The position numbers and the translations under genes were made by a program. Positions 37,659-37,903 of a stretch of 64,000 nucleotides of DNA are shown here, in pieces; position 1 is the stretch's first letter, and every line of letters begins with the position of its first letter. Under the pieces are notes generated by a model. That model did not search any database. It worked only from the letters and a program-made list of their open reading frames with translations, and was not told the origin of the DNA. Origin of the DNA: Escherichia coli. Lineage in GTDB: Bacteria > Pseudomonadota > Gammaproteobacteria > Enterobacterales > Enterobacteriaceae. The stretch lies in NCBI RefSeq assembly GCF_003334335.1, contig NZ_QOWQ01000030.1; one strand, 5' to 3'.

Positions 37659-37753
37659 TGAATAAAACCACGAGTTCCTGGTGTGCCTTATTCGGCCTGC
37701 TAGTTCGAATTTAATTTACGGTTTTTATGTGGTTTTAGGGATAAACACAAGGA

Positions 37754-37828
37754 TGGTGTCCCCTGCAGGAATCGAACCTGCAATTAGCCCTTAGGAGGGG
37801 CTCGTTATATCCATTTAACTAAGAGGAC
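37754..37828 (-). tRNA. argW: tRNA-Arg (anticodon CCU)
   Basis: 75-nt sequence (reverse complement gtcctcttagttaaatgga...ctaattgcaggttcgattcctgcaggggacacca) with a 7-bp acceptor stem, a T-loop ggttcgattcc, anticodon-loop ct-CCT-aa and an encoded 3' CCA. Confidence 0.85.
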
Positions 37829-37903
37829 AATGCGGCATGAGTATACCCGCTAATGGAGTGCGGGGTAAGTACGCTGCCGCTCGATTGCTTAAACCCTCGC
37901 CAT

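Follow-up and report, generated by a model that had tools for sequence, protein, structure and literature searches.

An unoccupied argW attachment site in an Escherichia coli strain very close to K-12

We analysed the tRNA-Arg gene argW and its neighbourhood in a stretch of 64,000 nucleotides of Escherichia coli DNA, which we refer to as the window, and found that the argW site is, almost beyond doubt, an unoccupied attB in a strain very close to K-12. The site holds two att cores, one of 16 nt that is of the IntS type and one of 25 bp that is of the Stx2a-phage type.

The argW locus between dsdC and yfdC

The sole tRNA gene that ARAGORN found in the 64-kb window is a tRNA-Arg with the anticodon CCT, located at 37754..37828 on the minus strand. 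The Rfam tRNA model (RF00005) matched 37757..37828 with 63.4 bits, against a gathering score of 29, and alignment showed the gene to be an intact tRNA-Arg(CCU) with the same sequence as K-12 argW. A second Rfam match, to Plastid-ycf2 antisense, was dismissed at 24.8 bits, below its gathering score of 65.7. The names dsdC, tRNA-Arg and yfdC come from the annotation of complete genomes that match the window at 100% identity over 801 bp and, for dsdC and yfdC, also from that of K-12. The features of the locus are as follows.

36723..37658, plus strand: dsdC, LysR-type regulator of D-serine catabolism, the flank on the 3' side of the tRNA
37659..37752, no strand: spacer between dsdC and the core, non-coding, equal to the chromosomal flank of K-12 attR by alignment
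37753..37768, minus strand: IntS-type core of 16 nt, CTGCAGGGGACACCAT, consisting of the last 15 nt of argW and one further nt, in single copy
37754..37828, minus strand: argW, tRNA-Arg(CCU), from ARAGORN, Rfam and identity with K-12
37805..37829, minus strand: second att core, 25 bp, TGTCCTCTTAGTTAAATGGATATAA, consisting of the tRNA 5' end and one nt upstream, in single copy and unoccupied
37829..37903, no strand: argW-yfdC spacer of 75 bp, equal to the K-12 sequence by alignment
37904..38836, minus strand: yfdC, formate/nitrite transporter family protein, from its ORF and annotation, the flank on the 5' side of the tRNA

The dsdC ORF spans 36717..37658 and ends in a TAA stop at 37656..37658. 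The gene is annotated with a length of 936 nt in K-12 and in the 100%-identical genomes, and from this length we infer the start at 36723. The interval from the dsdC stop to the tRNA 3' end, 37659..37753, is exactly 95 bp long. An earlier reading of the letters and their ORF translations (the sequence-only reading) had given the same ends for the two genes and a non-coding gap of about 95 bp between them, and was right on each count according to ARAGORN, Rfam and the ORFs.

Neither the 95-bp nor the 75-bp spacer holds a gene annotated in K-12, and two short ORFs (41 and 54 aa) overlap the tRNA/yfdC side. Within the 95-bp spacer, a scan for promoter and terminator consensus sequences gave no match, and the RNA folding of its two strands was not better than that of shuffled sequences (z = -0.9 and -0.2). 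The argW promoter presumably lies in the 37829..37903 spacer, in which a consensus scan gave none.

The window joins the two K-12 prophage flanks on a single core

In MG1655, a 10,215-bp feature annotated as CPS-53 (KplE1) lies between argW and dsdC, at 2466369..2476583. It contains intS, yfdG, yfdH, yfdI, tail-fibre remnants, yfdK to yfdT, and torI, and is followed by pawZ, a 15-bp pseudo-tRNA copy. The prophage is heavily decayed in K-12, where tfaS and yfdL are pseudogenes.

Two MG1655 blocks, 2440150..2466383 and 2476584..2514298, together cover the whole window in collinear order, and both align without gaps, with 6 and 5 mismatches, respectively. The two blocks overlap in the window by exactly 16 bp, at 37753..37768, and this overlap is the core CTGCAGGGGACACCAT, which is the same as the 16-nt KplE1 core as published (PMC2951348). 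When all three sequences, the window, K-12 attL and K-12 attR, are aligned together, the window matches the attL flank (yfdC-argW) base for base before the core and the attR flank (pawZ to dsdC) base for base after it. Because two ungapped K-12 blocks meet on the 16-bp core, the window corresponds to the attB expected without the 10.2-kb CPS-53. The tRNA gene, the 16-nt core and the chromosomal flanks are thus alike in the window and in K-12, whereas the 10,215-bp prophage and the core copy in pawZ belong to K-12 and are absent from the window. [quoted passage not shown]

No remnant of a prophage is found in the window

We also searched the window for traces of an integrated element. No second copy of the tRNA 3' end was found in the 64 kb, either as a 15-mer with up to 2 mismatches or as a 26-mer with up to 3, and the 25-bp 5' core likewise had no second copy in the window at up to 3 mismatches. 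When the CPS-53 proteins (n=13) were compared with the window by tblastn, the best match had an E value of 0.078. Similarity to IntS was absent from the window, its best tblastn match (E = 1.7) lying away from argW. A repeat scan over 5 kb gave only a 12-nt repeat, of a size expected by chance, between 37760 and 38212, with one mismatch and inside yfdC.

The interior of CPS-53 gave a lone blastn match of 16 bp to the window (E = 0.55). This exact match, TTGCAGGTTCGATTCC, connects the T-arm region of argW (37768..37783) with a position in K-12 CPS-53 that precedes torI by a short distance and lies some 300 bp inward from attR (11776..11791 of the extracted K-12 locus). It could be due to chance or could be a relic of an older tRNA-derived att fragment.

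Collinearity with K-12 and the absence of indels mean that the window has the same genes as the K-12 flanks. The K-12 annotation of these collinear flanks includes no integrase or other prophage gene, and the only mobile element in it is IS186C, at the window edge. Tests for an integrated prophage or genomic island accordingly gave neither a tyrosine integrase beside the tRNA nor a direct repeat of the tRNA end bounding foreign DNA.

Together, these results bear out most of what the sequence-only reading had said of the site, and none of them speaks against an empty site. It had stated that K-12 carries a prophage at argW, as the MG1655 annotation indeed has it. Its report that the site shows no integrase, no repeat of the tRNA end and no phage ORF agrees with the core, tblastn and blastn searches within the 64 kb, and its view of the site as an empty attB is supported by the K-12 alignment, in which attL flank, core and attR flank are joined.

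The source strain is a very close relative of K-12

We found 11 SNPs and no indels between the window and MG1655 in about 63.9 kb, at positions 1603, 2781, 7162, 8441, 18854, 39634, 40248, 50232, 50872, 53955 and 62729. The flanks are therefore 99.98% identical to K-12, with about 1.7 differences per 10 kb, and because there are no indels, any K-12 frameshift in the stretch would be shared, possibly the lesion of the yfcU pseudogene among them. The SNPs nearest to the argW site are those at 18854 and 39634, with no cluster around it. Import of the empty allele from a divergent lineage by recombination was rejected, given the absence of an SNP cluster around the site.

The two ends of the window also differ from K-12. 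Positions 1..79 are the end of an IS186 located at the same nupC-side position as K-12 IS186C but inverted relative to it. At the other end, the final 13 to 16 bases (63985..64000) are the IS186 terminal repeat TCCCATAAGCGCTAAC, inserted in the fabB-yfcJ spacer; MG1655 lacks an IS at this place. These ends suggest that the window is almost an entire short-read contig whose assembly stopped at IS186 copies. With 11 SNPs and two IS186 differences, the strain is related to K-12 extremely closely without being K-12 itself. The empty argW site shows the same distinctness despite the 99.98% identity of the flanks, a point that has little import beyond bookkeeping.

Could the source nonetheless be an engineered K-12 derivative, such as a prophage-deleted or reduced-genome strain? 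Near-identity to MG1655 throughout the window would fit such an origin. We nevertheless regard it as largely refuted and give it next to no credence, as 11 SNPs in 64 kb is far above what is usual for K-12 derivatives, the nupC IS186 is inverted relative to IS186C, and an extra IS186 end is present in the fabB-yfcJ spacer. The junction itself has no scar or FRT site and exactly the natural core, and natural isolates of human and canine origin match the window at 100% identity along 25 kb.

The IS186 copies at both ends are also relevant to the proposal that the empty junction is an assembly artefact, in which a prophage at argW was dropped or collapsed. Repeats break assemblies, and the window starts and finishes within IS186 copies, as would be the case in a short-read contig. 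A core of 16 bp is, however, far too short for an assembler to bridge a prophage of at least 10 kb, and the same junction is present in more than 900 complete genomes, which makes an artefact extremely improbable.

The empty state of argW is common among complete genomes

To place the site among other E. coli, a census of 5,426 complete E. coli genomes was taken with junction-spanning probes, with a genome being counted if a single place covered at least 80% of the probe. The direct dsdC-argW junction was found in 939 of the 5,426 genomes (17%) with a 112-bp probe, and in 911 genomes with an 801-bp probe. An IntS-type integrase lies beside argW in 1,698 of the 5,426 (31%), cscB lies directly beside it in 1,411 of the 5,426 (26%), and an OmpH/UpaE/IpuAB island of the clone D i14 / Nissle 1917 type does so in 186 of the 5,426 (3%). 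About 1,190 genomes (about 22%) have an argW state that was left unclassified; one example carries a different tyrosine recombinase. The full K-12-type CPS-53 is present in only 362 of the 5,426 (7%), with a best match at least 99% identical to K-12 in 359 of them, and laboratory strains form the majority of those full-CPS-53 genomes that were sampled. The empty junction was also found in the more divergent strain YP3, with 93.9% identity at the junction and a spacer of 99 bp. The empty argW state is thus common, and it is the K-12 reference state, with CPS-53, that is uncommon.

These counts qualify one use that the sequence-only reading had proposed for the site, namely as a strain marker. 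The absence of a prophage is real, but its value as a marker is weak, because exactly this junction is shared by 939 of 5,426 genomes.

The argW locus has been called hypervariable and a recombination hotspot (PMC8787464, PMC4366372, PMC11251922, all three of which cite Moritz & Welch 2006). Compared with the hypervariable argW-dsdCXA / cscRAKB locus (Moritz & Welch 2006; Jahreis et al. 2002, both via citing papers), the window has a configuration that was described there, with dsdCXA intact and the dsdC-argW gap empty, whereas other genomes have csc genes, the UpaE/IpuAB/OmpH island, or IntS-type prophages or their remnants. The empty argW site in the window is therefore a commonplace variant of a known hotspot of integration, and one that has been described before.

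In csc-type loci, dsdC and the 5' part of dsdX have given way to the csc genes, and in the three loci that we inspected cscB adjoins argW without an integrase. About 440 bp separate cscB from argW in such loci, and in some strains a short DUF4942 gene fragment lies by the tRNA 3' end. This fragment hints that the csc block may itself be the remnant of an old island that integrated at argW. Elsewhere along the chromosome, strain 300709, whose argW junction matches that of the window at 100% identity, has an ISEc20 (IS110-like) inserted between yfdF and fadL (9881..11077 of the extracted locus); the window is without ISEc20.

Did the site lose a prophage?

We next consider how the site came to be empty. 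One explanation is that a K-12-like ancestor carried CPS-53/KplE1 and lost it through precise, scarless IntS/TorI excision, leaving a cured attB. The flanks are nearly the same as those of K-12, with none of the 11 SNPs in about 64 kb clustered by the site. The decay of CPS-53, a 10.2-kb element with tfaS and yfdL as pseudogenes, suggests long residence in K-12 and not a gain after so recent a split. KplE1 is, moreover, still proficient in excision in vivo (PMC2951348).

Several observations weigh on the other side. The full K-12-type CPS-53 occurs in 362 genomes, in 359 of which the best match reaches 99% identity with K-12 or more, and laboratory strains predominate among those sampled; the empty site is seen as well in several natural isolates that agree with the window at 100% identity along 25 kb; and the junction is empty in the divergent YP3, so that the empty state could be ancestral. 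Scarless excision and a site that was never occupied also give the same sequence. We consider curing possible and rather unlikely, because nearly every match to the full CPS-53 has 99% or more identity with K-12 and because the empty state is widespread. A tentative scenario, likewise rather unlikely in our view, is that a natural, near-isogenic relative of K-12 may have lost the decayed and excision-proficient CPS-53/KplE1 by scarless IntS/TorI recombination; alternatively, K-12 may have gained an already-decayed element very recently.

The 3' core is an attachment site of IntS-type phages

Whatever its history, the unoccupied attB in the window has the parts of an IntS-type site: an intact tRNA gene, a single 16-nt core, the outer flanks of attL and attR, and no phage gene, such as an integrase or excisionase, between them. 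KplE1, Sf6, HK620 and Kapi1 have the att sequence of this core in common (PMC8787464). Of these, Kapi1 was shown to integrate between yfdC and dsdC in a host with an empty site, in 19 of 20 colonies, and in 0 of 24 after a 17-bp attB deletion (PMC8787464). The window shares 16 of the 17 bases of the Kapi1 att AATGGTGTCCCCTGCAG; position 37752 is G, whereas the first base in Kapi1 is A. Relative to the empty attB of E. coli KP7, which was demonstrated experimentally to be the target of Kapi1 (PMC8787464), the locus and core of the window are alike. The duplication reported for Kapi1 is 17 bp and the identity with the window 16 bp, a comparison made through the published att sequence.

By analogy with this published work, the site in the window is presumably competent for IntS-type recombination. 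An IntS-type phage would recombine at the 16-nt core of argW, and the incoming attP would restore the tRNA end, generating attL and attR as in K-12. The sequence-only reading had offered the site as a predicted landing site for elements that target argW: this is hardly a prediction, as the use of this core by KplE1, Sf6, HK620 and Kapi1, and the integration of Kapi1 at such an empty site, have already been published (PMC8787464). A search of a phage collection with a 56-nt tRNA query returned mostly prophage records that contain the host tRNA; P22-like attP share just 16 nt, which is below the reach of this query.

The 5' core is that of Stx2a phages

The second core, at the 5' end of argW, was absent from the sequence-only reading and is also unoccupied here. 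Stx2a-converting phages at argW are well documented, for example in O157:H7 clade 8 (PMC9997748). The annotated attL of VT2phi_272 is 25 bp long and consists of the first 24 nt of the tRNA and one upstream base, which equals 37805..37829 of the window; the core in the window is identical to that of VT2phi_272. When the window was aligned with the VT2phi_272 junction, identity started at the 25-bp core, and the flank upstream of it was native K-12 sequence, unlike that of the phage junction. The window thus has what is expected of an Stx2a-type attB, namely one 25-bp core TGTCCTCTTAGTTAAATGGATATAA and, upstream of it, the native sequence.

Both sides of argW can be in use at the same time. In O157:H7 strain 9000 (18683..21441 of the extracted locus) and in the VT2phi_272 host, an intS-type remnant lies 3' of the gene and an Stx2a-type prophage with its own, different integrase lies 5' of it, whereas the window is empty on both sides. 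An Stx2a-type prophage on the 5' side of argW cuts the tRNA off from its native upstream region.

Implications

If CPS-53 was indeed lost in this lineage, the strain would illustrate, in nature, that a "cryptic" prophage can still move. Both argW cores are free in this strain, one for IntS-type seroconverting phages and the other for Stx2a phages. More broadly, the empty and csc-adjacent states of argW together account for about 43% of complete E. coli genomes, which is a small corrective to the use of K-12 as the reference for this locus.
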